Virus record (IMG/VR): IMGVR_UViG_3300004184_000007
Coordinates: 1 to 53,556 of that record
Reading direction: 5' to 3' (one strand)
DNA length: 53,556 nucleotides
Source of the DNA: a virus
Lineage: Duplodnaviria; Caudoviricetes
Position numbers and translations under genes: made by a program. The number at the start of each line of letters is the position of its first letter. Position 1 is the stretch's first letter. The notes below the pieces were generated by a model. The model worked only from the letters and a program-made list of their open reading frames with translations. It did no database searches and was not told where the DNA came from. Below, one piece after another: positions 1,720-48,283 of the stretch.

Positions 1720-1999
1720 CGGAGGCCTCCCTTCGGCGCACGGCCTCGGCGCCAGCATCGAGCATCTGTCGGCGGAGCATCCGGAGGCCGAGGCTGCGCT
1801 CGTCCCCTTCGAACGCGCCCGGAACTGCCCTCGACAGCCCGACGAGGACCGCGTCGAGAGCGGCGAGCGCGACGTCGCGGTCCCTCGTCACCCACGTGAG
1901 GTCGCTGGCGTGAACTCGGCGCTGCTCCTCGTCGGCCTGGTCGAGCGCGGCCAGGCGGGCGGCCTCAGCGGCGAGCTGCTCGGCGAACGAGTCAGCCAC
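1712..1999 (-). CDS. Hypothetical protein
   Basis: GTG start with GGGAGG SD; 8-nt overlap with the next gene. Confidence 0.6.
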   Translation of the reverse strand: MADSFAEQLAAEAARLAALDQADEEQRRVHASDLTWVTRDRDVALAALDAVLVGLSRAVPGAFEGDERSLGLRMLRRQMLDAGAEAVRRREASDG

Positions 2000-2087
2000 G
2001 GGACACCACCTCCCACCGGCGGTGGCTGCCATCGACGACGATGCGCCACGTCCAGCCGTACTTGTCGCGGATGAGGAGGTCAGCCAC
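1992..2087 (-). CDS. 31-aa micro-ORF (MADLLIRDKYGWTWRIVVDGSHRRWEVVSRG)
   Basis: Exactly fills the gap between two genes, with GTGGCTGA start/stop overlaps at both ends; below the ORF-track cutoff. Confidence 0.55.
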   Translation of the reverse strand: MADLLIRDKYGWTWRIVVDGSHRRWEVVSRG

Positions 2088-2391
2088 GGCGGGCCTCGAT
2101 CGCTGCGATGATGGCGGCTTCGAGTTCGTCCTCGGCGTCCTCGCGTGCTGCCGTCTGGAAGTCGTACTGGGTCACCTCGAAGGGCTGCTGACGGGCGCGC
2201 CGCACCGTCTGCACGAGGTCGATGATGCTCGTGCGCTCGGCCTTCGCCCCCGCCGCGCGGGCGTGGCTCAGGCTGTTGAGCACCCGTCGGAGGTCGGACT
2301 TCGCCACGCTGGTGGCGTCACCCTCGTAATCCACCGCTTCGAGGGCGCGGCGAAGGCGTGCGAGGGCCGCGGCGGTTCGCTCAGTCGCCAT
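2080..2391 (-). CDS. Hypothetical protein
   Basis: GC3-biased ORF coupled to its neighbours. Confidence 0.65.
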   Translation of the reverse strand: MATERTAAALARLRRALEAVDYEGDATSVAKSDLRRVLNSLSHARAAGAKAERTSIIDLVQTVRRARQQPFEVTQYDFQTAAREDAEDELEAAIIAAIEARRG

Positions 2392-2611
2392 CGCCCACCT
2401 CCACGTCCATCAGCCACCACATCTCGCGCACCGCCCGCGCCGTGCCCTCGCCGCGCACGGCCGCCGCGTCGACCGGCGGCTCGCCGACCGGCAGCCGCGT
2501 CGCGCGCACCGGTGCGCGCCGTCGGCGGGCGAGGCGGACCACTTCGAGGGTGCCCTGCTCGCGGGCCGCGTCGAGCTCGTGCGCCAGGGCGCTGTTGTCG
2601 AGGGGGGTCAT
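2381..2611 (-). CDS. Hypothetical protein (MTPLDNSALAHEL...)
   Basis: ATG overlapping the upstream stop; GGAGG SD. Confidence 0.55.
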   Translation of the reverse strand: MTPLDNSALAHELDAAREQGTLEVVRLARRRRAPVRATRLPVGEPPVDAAAVRGEGTARAVREMWWLMDVEVGDGD

Positions 2612-3594
2612 TGGAGAACCGCCTCTCGGGTGGGGGCGTCGACGAGTAGCGCTACTCCGAGGAGCGCGAGGTCGGCGTCGAGAGCACGCGCGGCCGCGAG
2701 GGACATCGGCCCGAGCTCGCGGTAGAGCGACCCCGCCGGGAGGTGGTTGGCGCCCGCGAAGATCTCGGCGCGCGCGGCGGGCGCCAGGGCCTGCCAGTCG
2801 GCGTCGAGCACCCATCGGGAGGTCTCGGCGGGAGGCTTCTTGGTGGGCTTCTTCGCGGGCGCCGCAGGCTTCTTGGACTTCGCCCTGGCCGCGGCGGCGA
2901 CGTGCACGGCCTCCCACCATCCGTCGGCCAGGTCGAGCCCCTTGTACAAGCCGCCGACGCGCAGGGAGAGCGCGCCGTCGACGATCTCGGCCGAGTCCGC
3001 CCAGGCCACCGGGCACACGTCGCCCTCGTCGAGCGCTACGCCCGCGCCGAGGTCTTCGTCGCGCACGAGGCCCGCGACCACCCGCCGCCCGATGGTGGTC
3101 ACCGCATCGTCGCCCACCCGCAAGAGGTGTGAGGGGGCCGTGGGCGCGCGCCGCTCGAAGCACCCGGGCGCGAGCGACTCCAGGCGCGCCGCGATCGACG
3201 CGGGTACCACCGTGCGCCAGCGATCGTCGGCGTCCGGGGCCGTGGACTCCGGGGTCCAGAGCACCAGTGTCTGCGGGTCGAGCGCTTCCTGGTGCGCGAT
3301 CGGCTCCCAGCCCTCGATGGCGACGAGCTCGACGAGGGGGTCGGCGTCCACCGCGGGTGACGGCGCGACCACCGGGGCCGGCGCGCCCACCATCGGGAGC
3401 GCGAGCTGCTGCGGCGGGAGGACGGCGCCCGCCCGGGTGCGGCCGGTGAAGGTCGCGACGGGCTCGCCGTCGGCCGCCCGCCACTCGATGTGCGTGCGGT
3501 CGGCGGTACTGCTCATCACGACCTCGACGCCCGGCAGCACGCCGCGGAGGGCGAGGGCGATGGCCGCCCGGAGGTCGGTCGCGTCGCCGCCCAT
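2608..3594 (-). CDS. Hypothetical protein (MGGDATDLRAAIAL...)
   Basis: Coding-like GC3 bias; TGATG coupling to the upstream gene. Confidence 0.65.
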   Translation of the reverse strand: MGGDATDLRAAIALALRGVLPGVEVVMSSTADRTHIEWRAADGEPVATFTGRTRAGAVLPPQQLALPMVGAPAPVVAPSPAVDADPLVELVAIEGWEPIAHQEALDPQTLVLWTPESTAPDADDRWRTVVPASIAARLESLAPGCFERRAPTAPSHLLRVGDDAVTTIGRRVVAGLVRDEDLGAGVALDEGDVCPVAWADSAEIVDGALSLRVGGLYKGLDLADGWWEAVHVAAAARAKSKKPAAPAKKPTKKPPAETSRWVLDADWQALAPAARAEIFAGANHLPAGSLYRELGPMSLAAARALDADLALLGVALLVDAPTREAVLQ

Positions 3595-11069: not shown

Positions 11070-11549
11070 CTACTGGCCGCCCGCGTTGTCCTCGCGGTCC
11101 TGAAGGATCGCCTCGTACAGGCGCATCAGGAAGTCGACGGAGAGGACGGGCCTCGCGCGGCTCATCCCGATGGTCTGCATCTCCGCGATGGCCGATTCAT
11201 CGGCCGCGACGCCGCGACGCGCGAGTTTCGCCCGGAGTTCCTGCTCCCTCGTTGGGTAGAGCGGGTGCTGCCCGAGCTGGTCACCGCCGCGCAGCGCGGC
11301 CGGGTCGAGCTCGACGGACCGGCCGACGAGCGCGTCGAGACTCTGGCCCGTCACGTTCGCCATGCCGTCGAGGAGCTTCTGGCCGACGCCGCGCTTGCCG
11401 GAGAGCACGTCGGAGATCGTCGCGTGGCTCACTCCCAGGGCCTTCGCGGCGTGCGTGATGACACCGCCGAACCGCAGCGTGATCAGGTCGCGCAGGCGTC
11501 GGCGGAGGGCATCGTTCTGCGCCGCGGGGAGAGCTCGTTCGCTGGCCAT
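11070..11549 (-). CDS. XRE-family HTH immunity repressor (ImmR/CI-like, no S24 domain)
   Basis: HAAKALGVSHATISDVLSGKRGVG HTH; divergent from cro; TACGCT 7 nt upstream of ATG 11549. Confidence 0.85.
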   Translation of the reverse strand: MASERALPAAQNDALRRRLRDLITLRFGGVITHAAKALGVSHATISDVLSGKRGVGQKLLDGMANVTGQSLDALVGRSVELDPAALRGGDQLGQHPLYPTREQELRAKLARRGVAADESAIAEMQTIGMSRARPVLSVDFLMRLYEAILQDREDNAGGQ

Positions 11550-11573
11550 GCGGTGGAGCGTAAGCGGAGCGAG

Positions 11574-11792
11574 TGTCGCGGAAGCTACATCGTGCATGGC
11601 TCAACCCCTTTGGTGGCGGTAGCTACAATGCCGGAAGGTGTCGCAGAAGCTACATTGCGCATGGTCTAGCCCATTCGGAGGCGGTAGCTACGGCCGTGGA
11701 AGTCGTCGCGGAAGCTACATCGGGCGAGGCCCGGTCTTTCGGCAGCGGTAGCTACAGCAAAACTGTTGACCGATTCTGTAGCAGTAGCTACA
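11574..11792. repeat. Operator array: seven 16-bp TGTAGC-N4-GCTACA-type sites, six of them in a ~65-bp triplication
   Basis: Sites start at 11574, 11612, 11639, 11677, 11704, 11741 and 11777; the last has perfect palindromic arms (TGTAGCAGTAGCTACA). Confidence 0.85.
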
Positions 11793-11794
11793 AC
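11766..11794 (+). promoter_or_regulatory. PR-like promoter TTGACC-17-TACAAC, overlapped by an operator
   Basis: Mirror of PL; cro ATG lies 7 nt after the -10. Confidence 0.65.
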
Positions 11795-11801
11795 GCGGGT
11801 C

Positions 11802-12278
11802 ATGAGCAACCCGAACGACCCGGGCCCGCGTCTCGCCGCATGGCGCGCGGACCATGACCCGAAGATCACGCTCCAGTCCTGCGCCGACGCCGTCGGGGTG
11901 AAGCACCCGACGTGGCTGGACTGGGAAAACGGCAACCGATCCCCCGGCCTGGAGAAGGCCCTCGCGATCGAGCTCTTCACCGACGGAGCCATCAAGATCG
12001 AGGCATGGGGCTTCGACGCCAAGGTCTTCGAGACGATCCGCAGCGTCATCGCGCGGCGAGACGAGTCCGAGCCTGAGCCCGTCTTCAGCGACCTCCCCAC
12101 TCCGCCTGCCCTGCCACCTCCGCCCGCCGCCGACCCGGTCGCCGCGGCTTCCCTCGCCGCGGCGAGGGAAGCGCTCGCTGCGGATGACGCCCGGAGGAAG
12201 GACATCGTCATCAAGGCAGCGCTTGCGCGGAAGGCCGAGCGCGACGCGGCCGAGGCCGAGCGGAAGCGGGTCGCCTAG
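11802..12278 (+). CDS. Cro-like XRE HTH regulator
   Basis: TLQSCADAVGVKHPTWLDWENGNRSPGLEKALAIE HTH; first gene of the rightward operon. Confidence 0.85.
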   Translation: MSNPNDPGPRLAAWRADHDPKITLQSCADAVGVKHPTWLDWENGNRSPGLEKALAIELFTDGAIKIEAWGFDAKVFETIRSVIARRDESEPEPVFSDLPTPPALPPPPAADPVAAASLAAAREALAADDARRKDIVIKAALARKAERDAAEAERKRVA

Positions 12279-41483: not shown

Positions 41484-41921
41484 ATGGACAAGCTCGACGG
41501 GCTGATACATTGGGCGAGCGGCATCGATCGTTCTGCACAGTTCGAGGTCATCCGCCGACTGACGGCGATCGCGCCGGGGGCGATGATCGCCATCCCGAGC
41601 GAAGTGAACGATCCGAAGCGGTCTCCTGCCGCCGCCGTGCTGAACGAGCTCGCTCGCTGGTCGCCGACCCCGCTTCAGCGCGACGGGCTCTTCCTTGCCC
41701 TAGCGTCGTGGCTCGACGTGTTGATGCGTGTGGACGGGGCAACGTTTTCAGAACAGATCCAAGGCGTCCCGATTCGCGCGGCGACCGGGTCCGCTGCCCC
41801 GGTCACCGACGAGGTGCTCGCTGCCTTCATGCCTCACCAGATGATGGCCGCTGCCAAGGCGGCGAACCAATGGGCCAGCGCGGTCGGTTCGTGGAAGGAG
41901 TTTCGCCGTGGAGCGACTTGA
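41484..41921 (+). CDS. Accessory hypothetical protein (moron 1, gene A)
   Basis: Interrupts gp46-gp47 synteny; weaker GC3 bias; TATGCT 6 nt before the ATG. Confidence 0.6.
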   Translation: MDKLDGLIHWASGIDRSAQFEVIRRLTAIAPGAMIAIPSEVNDPKRSPAAAVLNELARWSPTPLQRDGLFLALASWLDVLMRVDGATFSEQIQGVPIRAATGSAAPVTDEVLAAFMPHQMMAAAKAANQWASAVGSWKEFRRGAT

Positions 41922-42132
41922 GCGGGTGTCGGAGATCGAGATCGGTGCCTTCCTGGCTCGCTGCGCCTCGGGCCGCGCGACTCCCGACGACGAGATCGTC
42001 CAGGCGCTGTCCTGGCGTATGCCGTGTCTCCTCGCCGAGTTGCTGGCGCTCTCGCCGGGGCAGCGCGCGAGGCTGCTTGCGTCCCTCGCCGCGCCCCGAG
42101 TTGCCGCGCCCGCCATCGCCTCCGCCGCCTGA
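41908..42132 (+). CDS. Accessory small protein (moron 1, gene B)
   Basis: AAGGAG SD, GTG start overlapping gene A. Confidence 0.6.
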   Translation: MERLERVSEIEIGAFLARCASGRATPDDEIVQALSWRMPCLLAELLALSPGQRARLLASLAAPRVAAPAIASAA

Positions 42133-42174: not shown

Positions 42175-43704
42175 ATGCCCTTCACCCCCCGCATCGCCGC
42201 GACCATTCGCGACGCGCTCCTGGCCGACTGGCGCGCCCGCTACCTCGCGCTCTCGCCCCCGCAGGACCTCTCCATCGAGGAGGGCAGCGACGCGTACAAC
42301 GCCGCCGATGCGTGGTCGAAGTCGTTGGAGCCGACGGAGTACCTCGCGGGACAGGCCTCGGCGCGGGTGCTCGTGCGCGGGCAGTTCGGCACGGAGCTGG
42401 ACACCTCGGCGTCCGACGACGGTACGCAGCGCAAAGCCGCGACGGCCGCGCAGCTCTCCGTGCCGGTGACCGGCCCGGCGATCAACGGCACCACGGCGAC
42501 CAACGGCGCCACCCTCTCATCGTCCGACGGCCTGCGCTTCGTCCCGATCGACCCCGATACCGGCGCCGCCCTCACGTCCGTCACCGTGGATGGCAGCGCT
42601 CAGGCGACCCTCACCGTCGAGTGCACGACCCTCGGTACCGACGGGAACCTCCCGACGCCCACGACGCTGACCTGGTCGACGGCGCCCATCGGCTTCGCGG
42701 CCACTGCAGCAACCAGCGGCATCACCCGGCAGGGCACCGCCACAGAGAGCGACACCGCGCTCCAGGCCCGGCTCATCGAGCGGCGGCAGGCGCGCCCGGG
42801 CAGCGGCAACCCCGCCGACGTCCGCCAGAAGCTGCTGGAGTACGCCGGGGTCGACGAGGTGTTCGTGCACCCGTGCATGGCGCCCGACGGCACCTACGCG
42901 CTCGGCTGCATCACCGCGGTGGTGCTCGGCCCCGCGGCGGGCGACTCGACGGCGCCAGGGATCTTCTTCGACGCGCCGACGGGCTCGCCGCGCACGCAGG
43001 CGCTGATGAAGCGCTTCCTGCTGGGGGAGGTCGACGCCGACGGCGAGGAGATCCTCGAGGCGGAGCGGGAGGGGTTCCTCCCGGCGCCGATCCACCCGGA
43101 CAACGTAACGGTGGTGTCGCCTGGAACCGTCGCGTCCGAAGTGGTCGTCACGGTCACGACCTCCGTCGACTACCCGCCGAGCTTCGTCGGGAGCTACGTC
43201 GTGGCGGCCGCGCCCGCGCCGACGACCACGACCTTCTCAACGACGACCCCGATCGACGGGACCGGCCCGGGGAAGATCGAGCCGGACAACATGATCGCGA
43301 TCAACGTGAGCACGCCCGCGAAGCGCGGGGGGTTCACGCGGGGGAAGGTCCTGACGGCGGCGGGAACGAGCGTGATGCTGGCCGAGGCGCTCCCGGCCGC
43401 GCCAGTCGCCGGGACCACCATCTACCCGACCACGGCCGCATGGCAGGGCATCCGCGACGCGGTGTTCGCGACCTTCGACGCGCTGGGCTCTGGCAACCCA
43501 GTCATCATGCCGTCGCGGGAGCAGCGGTTCCCGGCCGAGTCGTGGGGGCGCCCTGCCACCATCCGCGCCTCGCAGCTCATCGCGGCGATCATGGCCGTCC
43601 CTGGGGTGACCGACGTGACCGTAACGATCAGCGGGGGCACGGGGGCGACCGGGTCGATCCGGCACGTTGTCTGGCTCTCGACGCTGACGATCGTGCCGGG
43701 GTGA
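42175..43704 (+). CDS. Baseplate J-like protein (Mu gp47)
   Basis: RKAATAA...G..GN...G...ESD..L.ARL......PGSGN..D...GV....V.P. Confidence 0.88.
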   Translation: MPFTPRIAATIRDALLADWRARYLALSPPQDLSIEEGSDAYNAADAWSKSLEPTEYLAGQASARVLVRGQFGTELDTSASDDGTQRKAATAAQLSVPVTGPAINGTTATNGATLSSSDGLRFVPIDPDTGAALTSVTVDGSAQATLTVECTTLGTDGNLPTPTTLTWSTAPIGFAATAATSGITRQGTATESDTALQARLIERRQARPGSGNPADVRQKLLEYAGVDEVFVHPCMAPDGTYALGCITAVVLGPAAGDSTAPGIFFDAPTGSPRTQALMKRFLLGEVDADGEEILEAEREGFLPAPIHPDNVTVVSPGTVASEVVVTVTTSVDYPPSFVGSYVVAAAPAPTTTTFSTTTPIDGTGPGKIEPDNMIAINVSTPAKRGGFTRGKVLTAAGTSVMLAEALPAAPVAGTTIYPTTAAWQGIRDAVFATFDALGSGNPVIMPSREQRFPAESWGRPATIRASQLIAAIMAVPGVTDVTVTISGGTGATGSIRHVVWLSTLTIVPG

Positions 43705-44589
43705 TCATCGCGGGCACGACCACGACGTTGTCGTGTCCGCGGCGCAGTTGCAGAAGCTCTGAACCATGGTGGGGCTGGTTCGGTACGTCCCGCACCGCTG
43801 ACACGCCAGCGTGTTGGCGGCATACCGCTGAAGCAGCATCACGTCGGGCGTGCGCGAGGCCACGCACCGGGCGGTGCCCTGCCATGTCCGCTCGCTTGAG
43901 CTGAAGTGGCGATCCTGAAGCGTCAGGCAGTACGCGTTGAGCTCCGCACTGCCCGCGCTGTCCTCGGTCCCGTCGCAGTTGTCGTCGAACCCGTTGCATC
44001 GTTCCGTAGCCCCGGGATGGCGGTCGCGGTCGGTATCGTCGCAGTCCATCCCTCCGCACGCCGGGATCGTCGCCCCGTCCCCATCGGCATCGCAGGCCAC
44101 GCAGGCAGATGCGAAGCACCCACGGCCCGCAGCGCACGCTGCCCCGCAGGCGCCGCAGTTCGCCCCGCTGCTCCGCAGGTTCGTCTCGCAGCCGTTGGCC
44201 GGGTTGCCGTCGCAGTCGGCGAGGCCTTCGGAGCACACGCCGACCCCGCAGCGACCACTGAGGCACGCTGCGCTCATCGCGCCAGCGGGTGTCACGCAGG
44301 CCACGCCGCAGCAGTTCCCGACCGTGGCGGAGGTACATCCAGCCGGAAGAACGTCAGCGGGCACGTCCACTCCCACGTCCCCCGGCCCGGCATCGGGCAG
44401 CGCGGGCCGATCCTCGCCGACGTCCGCCGCGGGCGCGTCCCCGCCACCGGCGTCGATCGCCACGCAGGCCCCGCCGCTGCACACCGTCCCGACGCCGCAC
44501 GCGCTCGAGCAGGGGCCCGAGTCGGGGAGCAGCACAGGGTCAGCGGCGCAAGCGGCGAGGGTGAGGCAGAGCAGGAAGAAGGATCGCAT
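43705..44589 (-). CDS. Cys-rich lipoprotein with myxobacterial-type repeats
   Basis: Signal MRSFFLLCLTLAA-C (lipobox); DCDGNPANGCETNL...NCGACG.AC repeat; DADGDG...DCDD.D...HPGATERCNGFDDNCDG putative metal-binding motif. Confidence 0.85.
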   Translation of the reverse strand: MRSFFLLCLTLAACAADPVLLPDSGPCSSACGVGTVCSGGACVAIDAGGGDAPAADVGEDRPALPDAGPGDVGVDVPADVLPAGCTSATVGNCCGVACVTPAGAMSAACLSGRCGVGVCSEGLADCDGNPANGCETNLRSSGANCGACGAACAAGRGCFASACVACDADGDGATIPACGGMDCDDTDRDRHPGATERCNGFDDNCDGTEDSAGSAELNAYCLTLQDRHFSSSERTWQGTARCVASRTPDVMLLQRYAANTLACQRCGTYRTSPTMVQSFCNCAADTTTSWSCPR

Positions 44590-44644
44590 CCCCGGACGGT
44601 AGCTCAGCCAGGCGCCGAACGAACAACCCACGGAGACCGAGAAC

Positions 44645-44818
44645 ATGAACATCGAAGCCCAGGCCCGATCCGCAGCCGTCGCGACCACCGCGTGCCGCTA
44701 CCTCCGCCCCGTCGTCGAGCGGCGGGTGCTTCGCGCCCTGCGCGCCGCGGTCCGCAACGGCCAATCCGCCGAGCGCATCGCCGCGCTGGCCGCGGCCCTC
44801 ACGGCGCTGAAGGGGTAA
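44645..44818 (+). CDS. Small basic protein (57 aa, MNIEAQARS...)
   Basis: GGAG SD; clean ORF below the track cutoff. Confidence 0.5.
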   Translation: MNIEAQARSAAVATTACRYLRPVVERRVLRALRAAVRNGQSAERIAALAAALTALKG

Positions 44819-44823
44819 GCCCC

Positions 44824-45060
44824 CTACGTCGCGCGGCTGCCCTTCGGGGTGACCCCGGCGCAGATGCGGTCGACTTCCGTGACGACGTCCGCTGGCGCCC
44901 TTGGGGGCGCACCCCGCTTCGCATCGAACGCGGCCACCGCGAGCACCGCCCGGATGCGTGCGGAGACGACATACTTCATGTCGCCCGGCACCTCGATCTT
45001 CTCGCCCACCGATGCCTGTAGGTACGCGGACAGGTAGTGGCTGAACTCTTCTTCGCTCAT
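44824..45060 (-). CDS. Small hypothetical protein (78 aa)
   Basis: GGAGGTG SD and TACCGT -10 upstream. Confidence 0.6.
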   Translation of the reverse strand: MSEEEFSHYLSAYLQASVGEKIEVPGDMKYVVSARIRAVLAVAAFDAKRGAPPRAPADVVTEVDRICAGVTPKGSRAT

Positions 45061-45150
45061 CGGGAATCACCTCCGATCCGACGGTAAAGGCGGCGGACAG
45101 AGCTCCCAAGGCTCCCCGCGCTGCTCTCTAGCCTCCGCAGGAGCTCTCCC

Positions 45151-45339
45151 ATGAACATCCTCTCCACCGCCCCCACGCGCGCCGGCGCCGCCGGGGATGT
45201 CGCCCGCCGCCTCGCCTACTGGATGGGTCCGGCCATCCGCGCGGCGGACAGGGCGGCGGACCTTCGCTGCGCGCTCGGCCGCAGCCGCTCCGTCCACGCT
45301 CCCGTGGTACAGACCCCGCCCTCTGGTACGCTCCCGTGA
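45151..45339 (+). CDS. Small hypothetical protein (62 aa)
   Basis: AGGAG SD before ATG. Confidence 0.4.
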   Translation: MNILSTAPTRAGAAGDVARRLAYWMGPAIRAADRAADLRCALGRSRSVHAPVVQTPPSGTLP

Positions 45340-45352
45340 TCGAGGCCTCCTG

Positions 45353-46159
45353 ATGACCCTGCCCCTCACCAAAGCCGAGCAGCTCTACAACGAGGCGGTC
45401 GCGCGTCTGAACAACGAGTGGGACGTCATCGATCCGTTCACACTTCGCCGGTGGCTTCGGGATGGCCGGGGTCTACTGGACCACGCTGACGACTTTGGGC
45501 GGTGGCAGCTCTGGACGATCATCGGACACTGCGAGTTGCGACTTGCCATGGTGGCCCCGAGCGCGCGCGCCCGGCTGGAAGCCGCTCACGCCGCGTACGA
45601 AGAGGCGCACCGCATCCGGCCGTCGAACCCGCACTCCATCGTCGACGTGGGCCGTGCTCTTGGTCATCTCGGCCGACCCCGGGAGGCGCTCCCCTACTTC
45701 GAGCGGGCCGAGCAGATCTACGCGCCGGACTCGGTGGAGCGGGTCATCGTCCAGGCGAATCTGGCAATGGCCCACTACAGCCTGGAGGATTCACCCCGCG
45801 CCAACGTGTTTCTTCGGCGGGCGATCAAGAGCGTCCGGCCTGACGATGCGCACACGCTCCTGCAGCTCGCTCAGACGGCGGCGCAACTGGGGCACGAGGA
45901 CGACGCGGCGGAGATCTTCGTGCGGTTTCTCGCGGCATCGCAGCGGCGCGAACGAGGCGACGCACCGGCGGCGGACGTGATCCGGCGCACGCCGTCCGAA
46001 GTGATGCTGCGCGCTGTACGGGCGAATGCGCTTCGGGATGCGCTGGTCAACGTGCTCGCACGCGCTGAGGAGCCCATTCCCGACGACATGGCCACGTCCG
46101 CGGAGCGAGTGCTGTCGCCGGAGGGCTGGGCCCGCTTTGAGAGTTTGGTTGAGGCGTGA
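45353..46159 (+). CDS. TPR-repeat protein with DUF1778/TacA-like C-terminal tail; candidate antitoxin
   Basis: TPRs (AHAAYEEAHRIRPSN...VGRALGHLGRPREALPYFERA...NLAMAHYSL...LAQTAAQLGHEDDAAEIF); tail RAEE...RVLSPEGWARFESLVEA; GTGA overlap with the GNAT gene. Confidence 0.8.
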   Translation: MTLPLTKAEQLYNEAVARLNNEWDVIDPFTLRRWLRDGRGLLDHADDFGRWQLWTIIGHCELRLAMVAPSARARLEAAHAAYEEAHRIRPSNPHSIVDVGRALGHLGRPREALPYFERAEQIYAPDSVERVIVQANLAMAHYSLEDSPRANVFLRRAIKSVRPDDAHTLLQLAQTAAQLGHEDDAAEIFVRFLAASQRRERGDAPAADVIRRTPSEVMLRAVRANALRDALVNVLARAEEPIPDDMATSAERVLSPEGWARFESLVEA

Positions 46160-46695
46160 GCGCGGCCATGGAGGTGCGACGGCTGCTCTCGAAGGACATG
46201 ATTAGCGACTTCAGCTGTGGCACGTCGGCGCTGGACGACTACCTCTCGAAGCACGCGCGCGAGAGCGCGGGTCGGCAGTGGAACGCGACGTGGCTCGCGA
46301 TCGACACCGAAGGCGACGACGCGATCGCCGGGTACGTGACGATGGTCCCCGGTTCGGTCCGAAGCGCGCTCCTGAAGCCGCTCATACCCCGGCTCCCGGG
46401 ATATCCCGCGCCGGTGCTGCTGCTCGCGAAGATGGCCACAGACCTCCGGTTCCGGGGTCGGGGCGTGGGGACCCGGCTCCTGCGGGAGGTCTTCCGTGCG
46501 GCCCTCACCCAGGCCGAGCAGGTCGGCTGCGTGGGCGTGTTCACCGACGCCAAGCCCGATGCCGTGGCGTTCTACGACCGGCAAGGGTTCGTGCTGGTCG
46601 AGGCGCCCCAGGCAGAGGTCGGCACGACGGCGATGTTTCTGACGATGCCCGCGGTCCGGGAGCGGCTCGTGGCGCTCGCCGACGCGCCCCAGTAG
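46156..46695 (+). CDS. GNAT acetyltransferase toxin (TacT/AtaT-like)
   Basis: DFSCGTSALDDYL..HA; IAGYVT; PGYPAPVLLLAKMATD..FRGRGVG..LL; GCVGVFTDAK..AVAFY...GF. Confidence 0.9.
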   Translation: MSAAMEVRRLLSKDMISDFSCGTSALDDYLSKHARESAGRQWNATWLAIDTEGDDAIAGYVTMVPGSVRSALLKPLIPRLPGYPAPVLLLAKMATDLRFRGRGVGTRLLREVFRAALTQAEQVGCVGVFTDAKPDAVAFYDRQGFVLVEAPQAEVGTTAMFLTMPAVRERLVALADAPQ

Positions 46696-46792
46696 TCCCC
46701 GCGGCGCTGCCGTTCCGACTGCCCGTCCCTGATCCCTCCGCGGCCCGTCGCCCCACCTGGCGCGCGGGCCGCGCTCGTTCTGGAGCCCCCAT

Positions 46793-47398
46793 ATGACCCA
46801 GTCCCTCCCATCCGGCTCCACCGCGGCCGACCGGATCGCCCGTGAGCTCGCCCGCCTCCGCGGCCCAGAGATCTCCCCCTCCGACGGCACCCTCGTCGCT
46901 GAAGACCTCCGCGCCCAGGGCGGCGCCGCGGCCCTGGCGCGTGCGACGATCCAGCGAGCGATCGCCCAGGCCCACCCGAGCACCGCGACCGACCTGCTGC
47001 CGGAGCTCGAGGCAGAGTACGGCCTGCCGAGCGGGTCCGCGCTCTCGACCTCCGCGCGCCAACTGCGGCTCCTCGCGAAGTACCGGGCGCGGGGCGACGG
47101 CTCGCTGAACGCGCTCGCTGTCACCGTGCGGACGCTCGTGCCGACGGCGACGCTGCTCGCCATCGCCGCAGCCGCCGTGGCGGACACCGCCCCCGACGCG
47201 GTGTTCAACCTGGTAGTGCTGGTCCCGCTCGCCACCATGGACGACGCGAACGTCCTCGCCGAGCTCGACGCGCTCCTCGGCCAGCAGGTCACCAGCTACG
47301 CGAACTGGACCTACGGCCGCGGCGCGGGCCCCGACATCGACCCCTTCCTCTGCGACCGCACCGACTCGCAGTGCGACGTCGACCTCCTCGCCTCGTAG
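46793..47398 (+). CDS. Baseplate protein (Mu gp48 / DUF2313-like)
   Basis: P.TATDLLPELE..YGLP...RQ.RL.AK.RARG. Confidence 0.8.
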   Translation: MTQSLPSGSTAADRIARELARLRGPEISPSDGTLVAEDLRAQGGAAALARATIQRAIAQAHPSTATDLLPELEAEYGLPSGSALSTSARQLRLLAKYRARGDGSLNALAVTVRTLVPTATLLAIAAAAVADTAPDAVFNLVVLVPLATMDDANVLAELDALLGQQVTSYANWTYGRGAGPDIDPFLCDRTDSQCDVDLLAS

Positions 47399-47422
47399 CC
47401 CCCTCCACCGATCGGAGCCCCC

Positions 47423-48283
47423 ATGTCCGGAGCCGCCTTCAGCGCAACCCCGAGGTTGCAGCAGCCGGTCTCGCCTGCGCTTCCGCAGGGTGACCCGAGC
47501 AACCTCGCCCTCGCCCGCGAGCTGCTCGACAACCGTGCGCTCTTCCTCGCGGTGGCGCGCGGGCACTCCCCCGGCGACGTCCGCGTCACCGTGGGCGGAG
47601 ACGCCGCGGCGCCCTCGCTCGCCGTCACCGACGCCGAGCCCGTCCCTGTGCGCGACGAGGACCTCGTGTGGCGCGCGGCCGGCCCCCTCGCAGGGACCGT
47701 GCTCCCGGGCGCGCTCGCCGCCTCCACGATCCACTACCTCTACCTGCGCTCGGCGACGGACGGGACGATCAGCTACGTCGTCTCGACGACGGCGCCGACG
47801 ACGGGCAGCTACCGGGCCACCGGGGACGAGCTGCAGCGCCACGTCGCGACCTTCGCCACGGGCCTCCTCGGCTTCCCCCTTCCGGCCGTGGTGGGCACGC
47901 GGAGCGGGAAGTACATCGCGAGCGGCAACCGCAACGAGCTCTACGTGCTCAACAACGCACAGGCTACGAGCTGGGCCCCGGTCGACCTCTCGGCCCTGGT
48001 CCCGCCTTCGGCCACCACGGCGTGGGTCATGGTCCGGGCCTACCGGGCCGCGGCGGATGCGGGCGTTCGGGAGGTGCAGCTACGCCGGGCCACGGCGGAT
48101 GCGGGCTCGTTCATCGCCGCTGCGGCGCACCCATCGAGCGCGGGCGGCATCGACATCGACACCTACGACGAGAAGCTCGTGGCCATCCCGCTCACGGCAC
48201 AGGCCTTCGAGTACCAGCTCAACGCGGCCGTCACCGTGGGCGCGCCCTACGGCGCTCGCTTCATCGTCGTGGGGTGGGAGTAG
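47423..48283 (+). CDS. Tail fibre / baseplate-distal structural protein
   Basis: After gp48; LAAST.HYLY, W..VDLS.LVP..AT motifs of tail-fibre proteins. Confidence 0.65.
   Translation: MSGAAFSATPRLQQPVSPALPQGDPSNLALARELLDNRALFLAVARGHSPGDVRVTVGGDAAAPSLAVTDAEPVPVRDEDLVWRAAGPLAGTVLPGALAASTIHYLYLRSATDGTISYVVSTTAPTTGSYRATGDELQRHVATFATGLLGFPLPAVVGTRSGKYIASGNRNELYVLNNAQATSWAPVDLSALVPPSATTAWVMVRAYRAAADAGVREVQLRRATADAGSFIAAAAHPSSAGGIDIDTYDEKLVAIPLTAQAFEYQLNAAVTVGAPYGARFIVVGWE

Follow-up and report, generated by a model that had tools for sequence, protein, structure and literature searches.

The 53,556-nucleotide virus record analysed here (hereafter the window; IMG/VR record IMGVR_UViG_3300004184_000007) carries, between two baseplate genes, a pair of overlapping plus-strand genes that encode a 268-residue tetratricopeptide repeat (TPR) protein (P0001, positions 45353..46159) and a 179-residue GNAT acetyltransferase (P0002, positions 46156..46695). 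The two open reading frames (ORFs) meet in a GTGA start/stop overlap (46156..46159, plus strand), in which the GTG start of the GNAT gene (46156-46158) is laid over the TGA stop of the TPR gene (46157-46159), an arrangement that implies that the two would be translationally coupled. A first-pass annotation of the same DNA, made from the letters alone, had reported this layout and had proposed that the DNA-binding domain of a conventional antitoxin was replaced by a TPR ligand-sensing domain, so that a protein from a superinfecting phage could release the toxin; its observation is confirmed by our analysis and its interpretation is partly supported. We find that the TPR protein ends in a segment homologous, by profile comparison, to the one with which DUF1778 antitoxins grip tRNA-acetylating GNAT toxins, and we put at roughly 0.68 the probability that the two genes form a toxin-antitoxin (TA) pair in which the toxin is neutralised through this C-terminal tail.

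The GNAT gene had been read as intact and complete in its TacT/AtaT motifs, and Pfam, PDB and fold comparisons agree with that reading. All three motifs are present, namely DFSCGTSALDDYL (FSCG..LD.YL), the acetyl-CoA loop RGRGVG and DAKPDAVAFYDRQGF (DAK..A..FY...GF), and the protein matches the Pfam families Acetyltransf_7, Acetyltransf_1 and Acetyltransf_10 above their cut-offs as well as phrog_1758 (E 3e-22). A phmmer search of the PDB returned 26 sequences at E<=1, among which the 16 top-ranking ones, with E from 2.8e-15 to 6.8e-6, are all toxins, being TacT1-3, AtaT, AtaT2, KacT, GmvT or 'bacterial toxin' by title, and the next match is the aminoglycoside acetyltransferase AAC(3)-XI (E 2.9e-4). 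The AlphaFold2 model (predicted local distance difference test score, pLDDT, 95.9) gave the same picture in Foldseek, where ranks 1-38 among the matches listed are all tRNA-acetylating TA toxins (TacT, TacT2, TacT3, AtaT, AtaT2, KacT, GmvT and '7byy bacterial toxin'; E 2.5e-14 to 1.7e-10, TM score 0.71-0.89), followed by the N-terminal acetyltransferase Ard1 (E 2.3e-7). Eight sequences were aligned, namely the window GNAT, its close relatives P0006, P0008 and P0009, one KacT-like toxin, two toxins of Salmonella and a GNAT from a mycobacterial prophage. In all eight the G-x-G-x-G loop (G101, G103, G105) and Y140 (equivalent to Y145 of KacT) are invariant; the tyrosine mutated in the KacT Y145F and AtaT Y144F structures, as given in their PDB titles, is therefore present here together with the acetyl-CoA P-loop R/Q-x-x-G-x-G/A. 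Sequence and predicted fold place the protein in the TacT/AtaT family as securely as such evidence can, and by homology its acetylation target would be the amino group of aminoacyl-tRNA, with a block of translation as the result. The start codon was assigned with the help of relatives: although a public gene call (P0007) begins at ATG 46168 and yields 175 residues, the homologue P0008 opens with MSAALEV in register with the GTG, and a second TPR-GNAT locus on a metagenome contig (L004, described below) has the same GTGA junction. With either GNAT start the two genes lie 0-8 nt apart. In GenBank phages, tblastn with P0002 found 14 records, all below 60% identity.

The partner is a TPR protein throughout most of its length. 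TPR_12, TPR_2, TPR_1, TPR_14, TPR_8 and TPR_19 all exceed their Pfam cut-offs across approximately residues 70-200, and Pfam gives only TPR families for the 268-residue protein. The AlphaFold2 model, built from a four-sequence alignment (pLDDT 87.5), contains no strand and predicts a continuous helical solenoid with a cap for residues 1-239, in keeping with tandem 34-residue helix-turn-helix repeats, and its Foldseek matches are the generic TPR folds of CTPR, MamA, KLC, PEX5 and OGT. This body is followed at residues 240-255 by a low-confidence, acidic, proline-rich linker, whose codons 240-251 (EEPIPDDMATSA; 46070..46105, plus strand) are conserved in the family and predicted to be disordered, with P241 and P243 nearly invariant in the family alignment; pLDDT falls below 50 at residues 246-254 and is approximately 58 in a terminal helix at residues 256-267. 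ATG 45353 was taken as the start because three homologues begin at the same M..PLT motif and a GAGG Shine-Dalgarno-like element, read from the sequence (45342..45345, plus strand), lies 7 nt ahead of it. A longer ORF from ATG 45197 was rejected, since its 52 extra codons have a non-coding-like G+C pattern (0.69/0.81/0.73) and the place where the homologues begin is that of 45353. The partner has no N-terminal DNA-binding domain of the ribbon-helix-helix (RHH) type, as the first-pass annotation had stated: Pfam finds no match to PF08681 (DUF1778) in it, the AlphaFold2 model contains no RHH fold, and for the 26 aligned members of the TPR family described below, which matched 48 families in all, the 25 matched most often do not include PF08681. 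Failing both the RHH feature and the Pfam model, the protein is therefore not a member of the DUF1778 family.

GNAT/DUF1778 modules such as TacAT, AtaRT and KacAT are textbook type II TA systems, in which the antitoxin neutralises the toxin and also represses the operon through its RHH domain. How the neutralising part works is best followed in KacA-KacT, where the structural passages of PMC6698736 describe two successive grips. In the first, strand betaB of KacA (residues 52-56) pairs with strand beta3 of KacT and helix alphaC (57-70) follows, its residues W61, V64, A67 and I68 touching F70, F133 and F162 of the toxin. In the second, a linker (71PPAP74) leads into helix alphaD (75-86), which contacts E110, M111, H115, M117, R147 and Y163, and whose binding site is assigned to the acetyl-CoA site in a figure legend of that report; the same passages state that KacA keeps the KacT dimer from forming (PMC6698736).

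The C terminus of the window protein reads ERVLSPEGWARFESLVEA and ends at A268. The first-pass annotation had matched it by eye to the toxin-binding segment of DUF1778 antitoxins and had suggested a hidden Markov model comparison. To obtain relatives, a 70-column tail profile made from the window protein and its counterpart in L004 was searched against 1.84 billion representatives, and 26 proteins were returned at E<=1e-3. We judged 24 of them to be family members; the other two, P0085 and P0090, were judged spurious and are unrelated repeat proteins. In the 26-row alignment, 17 sequences end where the window protein ends, 6 continue into short proline-rich stubs and 3 (P0073, P0083 and P0089) carry a full extension, PPxPS.ALRRL.H.R, that comprises both the PPxP linker and alphaD. 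W259 is nearly invariant in the family.

When the deep tail family was compared by hhalign with a DUF1778 reference of four antitoxins taken from annotated records (L005-L008), the two aligned over 31 columns with P values of 5.8e-6, 2.3e-5 and 4.8e-6 (probabilities 85, 76 and 86%). The score of 31.0 compares with a maximum of 14.9 in 150 column shuffles and with 6.8 for the reversed alignment. The similarity is also seen in the core: without the extension columns the score was 20.4 (P 4.5e-4), without the nine extended members it was 19.1 (P 1.1e-3), and both values lie above all 100 shuffles, whose maxima in the two core-only runs were 15.3 and 14.1. The alignment sets R252-L254 (RVL) of the window protein on betaB and W259, F262, L265 and V266 on W61, V64, A67 and I68 of KacA, and the predicted helix 256-267 coincides with alphaC. 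We accordingly delimit a DUF1778-like betaB-alphaC segment at codons 252-268 (RVLSPEGWARFESLVEA; 46106..46156, plus strand), found by hhalign, shuffle controls and the KacA contact residues, and recognisable as such at the profile level. Searches of 177,635 PDB sequences with the tails of P0073 and P0083, the only two relatives' tails so searched, point the same way: at E<=10 phmmer gave four matches for each, all of them DUF1778 antitoxins, namely 6gtq_C, the C-terminal fragment of AtaR crystallised on AtaT (E 0.006-0.007), AtaR in 6ajn_C and 6ajm_C (E 0.017-0.02) and KacA in 5zgn_A (E 0.07-0.5), with alignments that span antitoxin residues 51-82.

It could be argued that the likeness is convergent or fortuitous, a generic amphipathic W-x-x-F helix, and that any binding to the GNAT proceeds through the repeats. 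Several results weigh in that direction and against homology. The window tail alone finds nothing in Pfam at E<=10; as a 58-residue phmmer query against the PDB it retrieves epoxide hydrolases only (E 0.045-0.11); and when 25 tails were combined into a HMMER profile, whose extension columns turned into inserts, no antitoxin was recovered from the PDB at E<=10. The hhalign probability of the core-only comparisons is just 20-33%, and although a four-member alignment was placed by hhalign in the proposed register, it reached only P 0.029 and a probability of 1.7%. Against convergence stand the P value of approximately 5e-6 for the full profile, far above its shuffles, the coincidence of the match with the KacA contact residues, and the retrieval of AtaR and KacA, and nothing else, from the whole PDB by the P0073 and P0083 tails. 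In addition, clear full-length homologues of the window protein carry the PPxP-alphaD extension and fall, with two stub-bearing members, on one side of a single supported split (99/98). We therefore regard convergence as very improbable and hold that profile comparison shows the tail to be homologous to betaB-alphaC, the segment with which DUF1778 antitoxins bind the toxin. That part of the original claim stood; the part of the segment beyond alphaC did not, since the PPxP linker and alphaD are absent from the window protein, which stops directly after alphaC and, by its sequence, keeps the first half only of the DUF1778 neutralisation segment.

The 24 family members share the whole architecture. 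Eighteen are 256-277 residues long, two have 371 and 398 residues, and four of 101-174 residues may be fragments, one of them having a 260-residue cluster mate. Where the sources name them they are TPR proteins of Myxococcales, and one GNAT relative comes from Polyangiales. A maximum-likelihood tree of 22 members, whose root is not known, places the three alphaD-bearing and two stub-bearing proteins on one side of the 99/98 split and the window protein among 17 on the other, a topology that fits a single loss of alphaD. As a separate feature of the family, the two longest proteins, P0066 (398 residues) and P0070 (371 residues), show an internal duplication of a module formed by the TPRs and an 'RGD..A.DV' cap, and carry the toxin-binding tail on the last copy only. 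Among the tail-profile matches of any length there was no fused TPR-GNAT protein.

The pairing itself recurs elsewhere, as the sequences of a second locus show directly. L004, a 2.5-kb metagenome contig, encodes a longer TPR family member with the same tail (P0066, 398 residues at full length), joined by a GTGA overlap to a 177-residue GNAT that is 47% identical to that of the window. Three further pairs of TPR and GNAT protein clusters have longest contigs of equal size and common sources: P0003/P0008 (9064), P0078/P0010 (4296) and P0087/P0011 (25306). P0008, P0010 and P0011 are three of the six closest relatives of the window GNAT, and from the equal-sized longest contigs we infer that the genes are adjacent in these three cases as well. 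Other searches gave no additional pair. P0001 had no tblastn match in GenBank phages and, in genome contigs, found one irrelevant Lachnospiraceae TPR protein only; a search of viral contigs with alignment A1 yielded no related locus; and a protein-atlas search returned generic TPR clusters only, one neighbouring cluster having HEPN_LA2681 in 23% of its members, which is a mere lead. A search of viral contigs with the GNAT alignment gave three distant GNAT loci, and one of these, L009, has no TPR partner. In L009, an unrelated IMG/VR contig, a 179-residue GNAT (within 2783-3516) is preceded by a 60-residue ORF (LSGKEADRF...KPNPAAK) that by eye resembles only the C-terminal half of DUF1778, without an RHH domain, and that may be another truncated-antitoxin variant.

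We infer binding, neutralisation, toxicity and a biological role for the pair. We propose that it would be a non-canonical type II TA module, which a temperate-type Myxococcota myophage carries among its baseplate genes as a moron. A helical TPR module of approximately 240 residues would have taken the place of the RHH domain by which a DUF1778 antitoxin binds DNA and dimerises, with betaB (RVL, 252-254) and alphaC (256-267; W259, F262, L265 and V266) apparently retained at the extreme C terminus on a flexible acidic linker. The disordered tail would fold onto the GNAT as the betaB-alphaC segment of KacA and AtaR does. Since alphaD was presumably lost in the lineage of the window protein, the tethered TPR body would provide the rest of the inhibition, possibly as a steric obstacle to dimerisation of the GNAT or at its tRNA surface. 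In the absence of a DNA-binding domain the pair cannot autoregulate classically, and control would probably be exerted by protein turnover or a ligand rather than by operator binding; the benefit to a lysogen could be retention of the prophage or defence against other phages. A prediction of the complex from GNAT and TPR alignments, run with no controls, gave ipSAE values of 0.08 and 0.02 against a mark of 0.32 and counts neither for nor against binding.

Some findings speak against neutralisation through the tail. In KacA it is alphaD that sits at the acetyl-CoA site, and the window protein is without alphaD, so that its binding might not inhibit the enzyme at all. No PADLOC family matches the GNAT (0 families), and a six-frame search of the whole record with PF08681, which also bears on the missing RHH domain, gave nothing at E<=10. 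Direct adjacency was seen in two loci, and is presumed in three more, against approximately 24 family representatives, and a second GNAT homologue search, with P0006, returned seven proteins and no further contig-length match. Alternatively, the pair may be no TA module: the GNAT would be a regulated acetyltransferase used during infection, for example on host tRNA or proteins, and the TPR protein would serve as its adaptor, gripping it through the tail and guiding it to a substrate or a site. Such a role would sit well with the orientation of the pair, which is that of the late baseplate genes and would permit read-through, with the missing alphaD, and with the want of a DNA-binding antitoxin domain and hence of classical autoregulation; moreover, GNATs outside the 'true TA clade' may have other functions, according to the passages of Bikmetov et al. 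on that clade (PMC9177977). Yet the nearest solved relatives of the GNAT are all TA toxins, separated from other GNATs by at least three orders of magnitude, the tail of the partner derives from the toxin-binding segment of an antitoxin, and an upstream partner gene with a 4-nt overlap is the layout of a type II TA operon. We consider an adaptor role improbable and favour a TA pair neutralised through the tail.

The genomic surroundings bear on what such a pair would do. The record has a G+C content of 72% and belongs to a phage of soil or sediment myxobacteria (Myxococcota). Its genes for a large terminase, major head protein, tail sheath and baseplate hub, together with divergent HTH genes of repressor type at 11070-12278, lead us to read it as a temperate-type myophage or prophage. 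The TPR-GNAT pair is part of a block of approximately 3.1 kb and four genes lodged between two baseplate genes, as had been noticed at first reading. On the left lies a Baseplate_J, or baseplate wedge, gene (42175..43704, plus strand; Pfam E 9.5e-23, phrog_6 E 2e-30) and on the right a Mu gp48-like baseplate wedge gene (46793..47398, plus strand; phrog_203 E 2.4e-9), whose match to PF10076 (Phage_Mu_Gp48) scores 31.3 bits, under the cut-off of 37.4. The other two genes of the block are on the minus strand. One (43705..44688) encodes a Cys-rich protein that has a metal-binding motif of the MopE type (PF11617, E 4.7e-10) and begins like a lipoprotein, which we treat as co-inserted cargo and do not claim as a member of the TA pair; the other (44824..45060), also co-inserted and divergent from the TPR gene, is a 78-residue ORF with no family match. 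The composition of the pair fits acquired cargo, that is, a moron: G+C is 67.7% in the TPR gene and 70.2% in the GNAT gene versus 72-74% in the flanking baseplate genes, and G+C at third codon positions is 0.81 and 0.91 versus 0.92-0.94. A locus search with the Baseplate_J protein found no related locus and thus gave no comparison of the slot across phages.

These surroundings also figure in the sensor interpretation, which enlarges on the proposal of the first-pass annotation. In it the groove of the TPR domain would bind a protein from a superinfecting phage, or else a host protein that infection has altered, and the tail would be loosened so that the GNAT is free to stop translation. The pair does lie on a phage or prophage with repressor-type genes, where it occupies an accessory slot next to the gene for a putative surface lipoprotein, and TPR domains are peptide- and protein-binding modules, with KLC, PEX5 and OGT among the fold matches being ligand-binding proteins. 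The protein further has a match to the Pfam family TPR-S (PF20308) that stays below threshold (17.7 bits against a cut-off of 27.6), as do those that eight of the 26 members give at E<=10, the best at 0.0014, and its central TPR region is the least conserved part of the family, with a mean pairwise identity of 0.27 compared with 0.38-0.41 in linker and tail. On the other side, the gap in variability is small when all other regions are considered (0.27 versus 0.30-0.41) and would be expected of a scaffold too; PADLOC recognises the TPR protein only through the generic PDLC01171 (E 4e-6) and has none for the GNAT; and family members also occur on contigs of 118-449 kb, so the family is not phage-specific.

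There are precedents for a sensor of this kind. CapRel SJ46 senses a phage capsid through its antitoxin domain, and the Avs (STAND) proteins sense phage proteins through TPR-like repeats. The logic proposed for the window would be shared with both, a protein-binding domain tied to the release of a translation toxin on a prophage, although here there is neither an NTPase nor a fused toxin and the comparison goes through the sub-threshold TPR-S match only. Taken together, we find release of the toxin upon infection possible but doubtful. It is rather unlikely, too, that the TPR body is a direct sensor that seizes a competing phage's structural or early protein, or a host factor perturbed by infection, and thereby pulls the half-length tail off the GNAT as a prophage abortive-infection switch; and only tentatively would we suggest that, in such a switch, the loss of alphaD weakened the grip so that it could be triggered. 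The TA pair neutralised through its tail, whatever its trigger, is the reading that we carry forward.

Compared with TacAT, AtaRT, KacAT, GmvAT and ItaRT, the pair has a toxin of the same family, with the same fold, acetyl-CoA loop and tyrosine; the putative antitoxin gene is likewise upstream and, to judge from the overlap, translationally coupled, and its product also ends in a predicted disordered segment homologous to the toxin-gripping betaB-alphaC. It differs in the absence of the RHH domain, and hence of operator binding or an RHH-mediated tetramer; in the TPR module of approximately 240 residues in its place, which makes the antitoxin about three times longer; and in the PPxP linker and alphaD, which are missing from the window protein and from 17 of the 26 aligned members, complete in 3 and reduced to stubs in 6. 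An exchange of antitoxins around a GNAT toxin has been reported before: Bikmetov et al. (2022) describe a GNAT clade that swapped DUF1778 for DUF4065 (PanA-type), with VcaA-VcaT validated, and their passages on the subject note GNATs with unrecognised upstream ORFs and there mention no TPR partner (PMC9177977). VcaA-VcaT offers a precedent for a toxin clade that gave up DUF1778 for a different partner and continues to act as a TA pair. In VcaA-VcaT, however, an unrelated domain took the place of the entire antitoxin, whereas in the window only the N-terminal domain appears to have been replaced and the ancestral toxin-binding segment was kept; nor is TPR the same as DUF4065. A TPR antitoxin for a GNAT toxin was not described in the full-text literature searched, supplements being outside that search, and the portions of PMC10865869 and PMC10440598 that it covered hold no relevant passage. 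The architecture, a TPR protein with a DUF1778-like tail as a GNAT antitoxin, thus appears to be new, as the first-pass annotation had suspected.

If the TA reading is correct, the locus is a clean and testable case of antitoxin domain replacement, in which the neutralising peptide parted from the domain that binds DNA and became attached to a scaffold for protein interaction. The stepwise shortening within the TPR family, from a full alphaD through stubs to none, would offer a natural truncation series for studying the minimal toxin-binding element, TA control without autoregulation and the conversion of antitoxins into sensors by repeat scaffolds. It would also add a Myxococcota- and phage-borne branch to the GNAT/DUF1778 family, which has been studied almost only in enterobacteria. 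Should the TPR domain prove to be a sensor, tRNA-acetylating toxins would be linked to phage defence by a directly testable mechanism.

Upstream of the TPR gene, an extended -10 element of the pair's own had been proposed. The letters TGGTACGCT are present at 45324..45332 (plus strand), where they overlap an 11-nt direct repeat, but function as a promoter found no support: a consensus scan of 43500-47000 detected no sigma-70-like promoter (0 found, 0.1 expected). A scan of the upstream region for inverted and direct repeats gave short two-copy repeats only. Among them, the 11 nt ACGCTCCCGTG occur as an exact direct repeat at 45296 and 45328, 32 nt apart; each copy abuts GGTAC, and the second overlaps the proposed -10 and the Shine-Dalgarno-like element. 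The repeat might be a candidate site for a regulator acting in trans, or a chance occurrence.

Further observations concern the cargo and its distribution. At 41484-42132, between the gene upstream and Baseplate_J, there are two small overlapping ORFs with no Pfam match at E<=0.01, and this is a second accessory slot in the baseplate operon. In L004, too, the TPR-GNAT pair has as its neighbour an opposite-strand Cys-rich protein, with CxxC repeats (1780-2460, minus strand); the similarity between it and the window protein encoded at 43705-44688 is weak and repeat-driven (BLASTP E 2e-05), and the two could represent shared cargo or merely a protein type common in myxobacteria. Another sediment sample yielded contigs identical to the window over 44275-47965, and a groundwater study yielded stretches of 151-244 nt, with 1-6 differences, from the TPR gene and the GNAT gene. 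One 151-nt contig at 46348-46498 came from a metatranscriptome library, which does not show transcription. Finally, one contig from the groundwater study aligns with the beginning of the gp48-like gene (46793), and the 107 nt that precede the match in that contig are absent from the window; a relative in that sample may therefore have another junction or cargo at the gp48 side of the slot.

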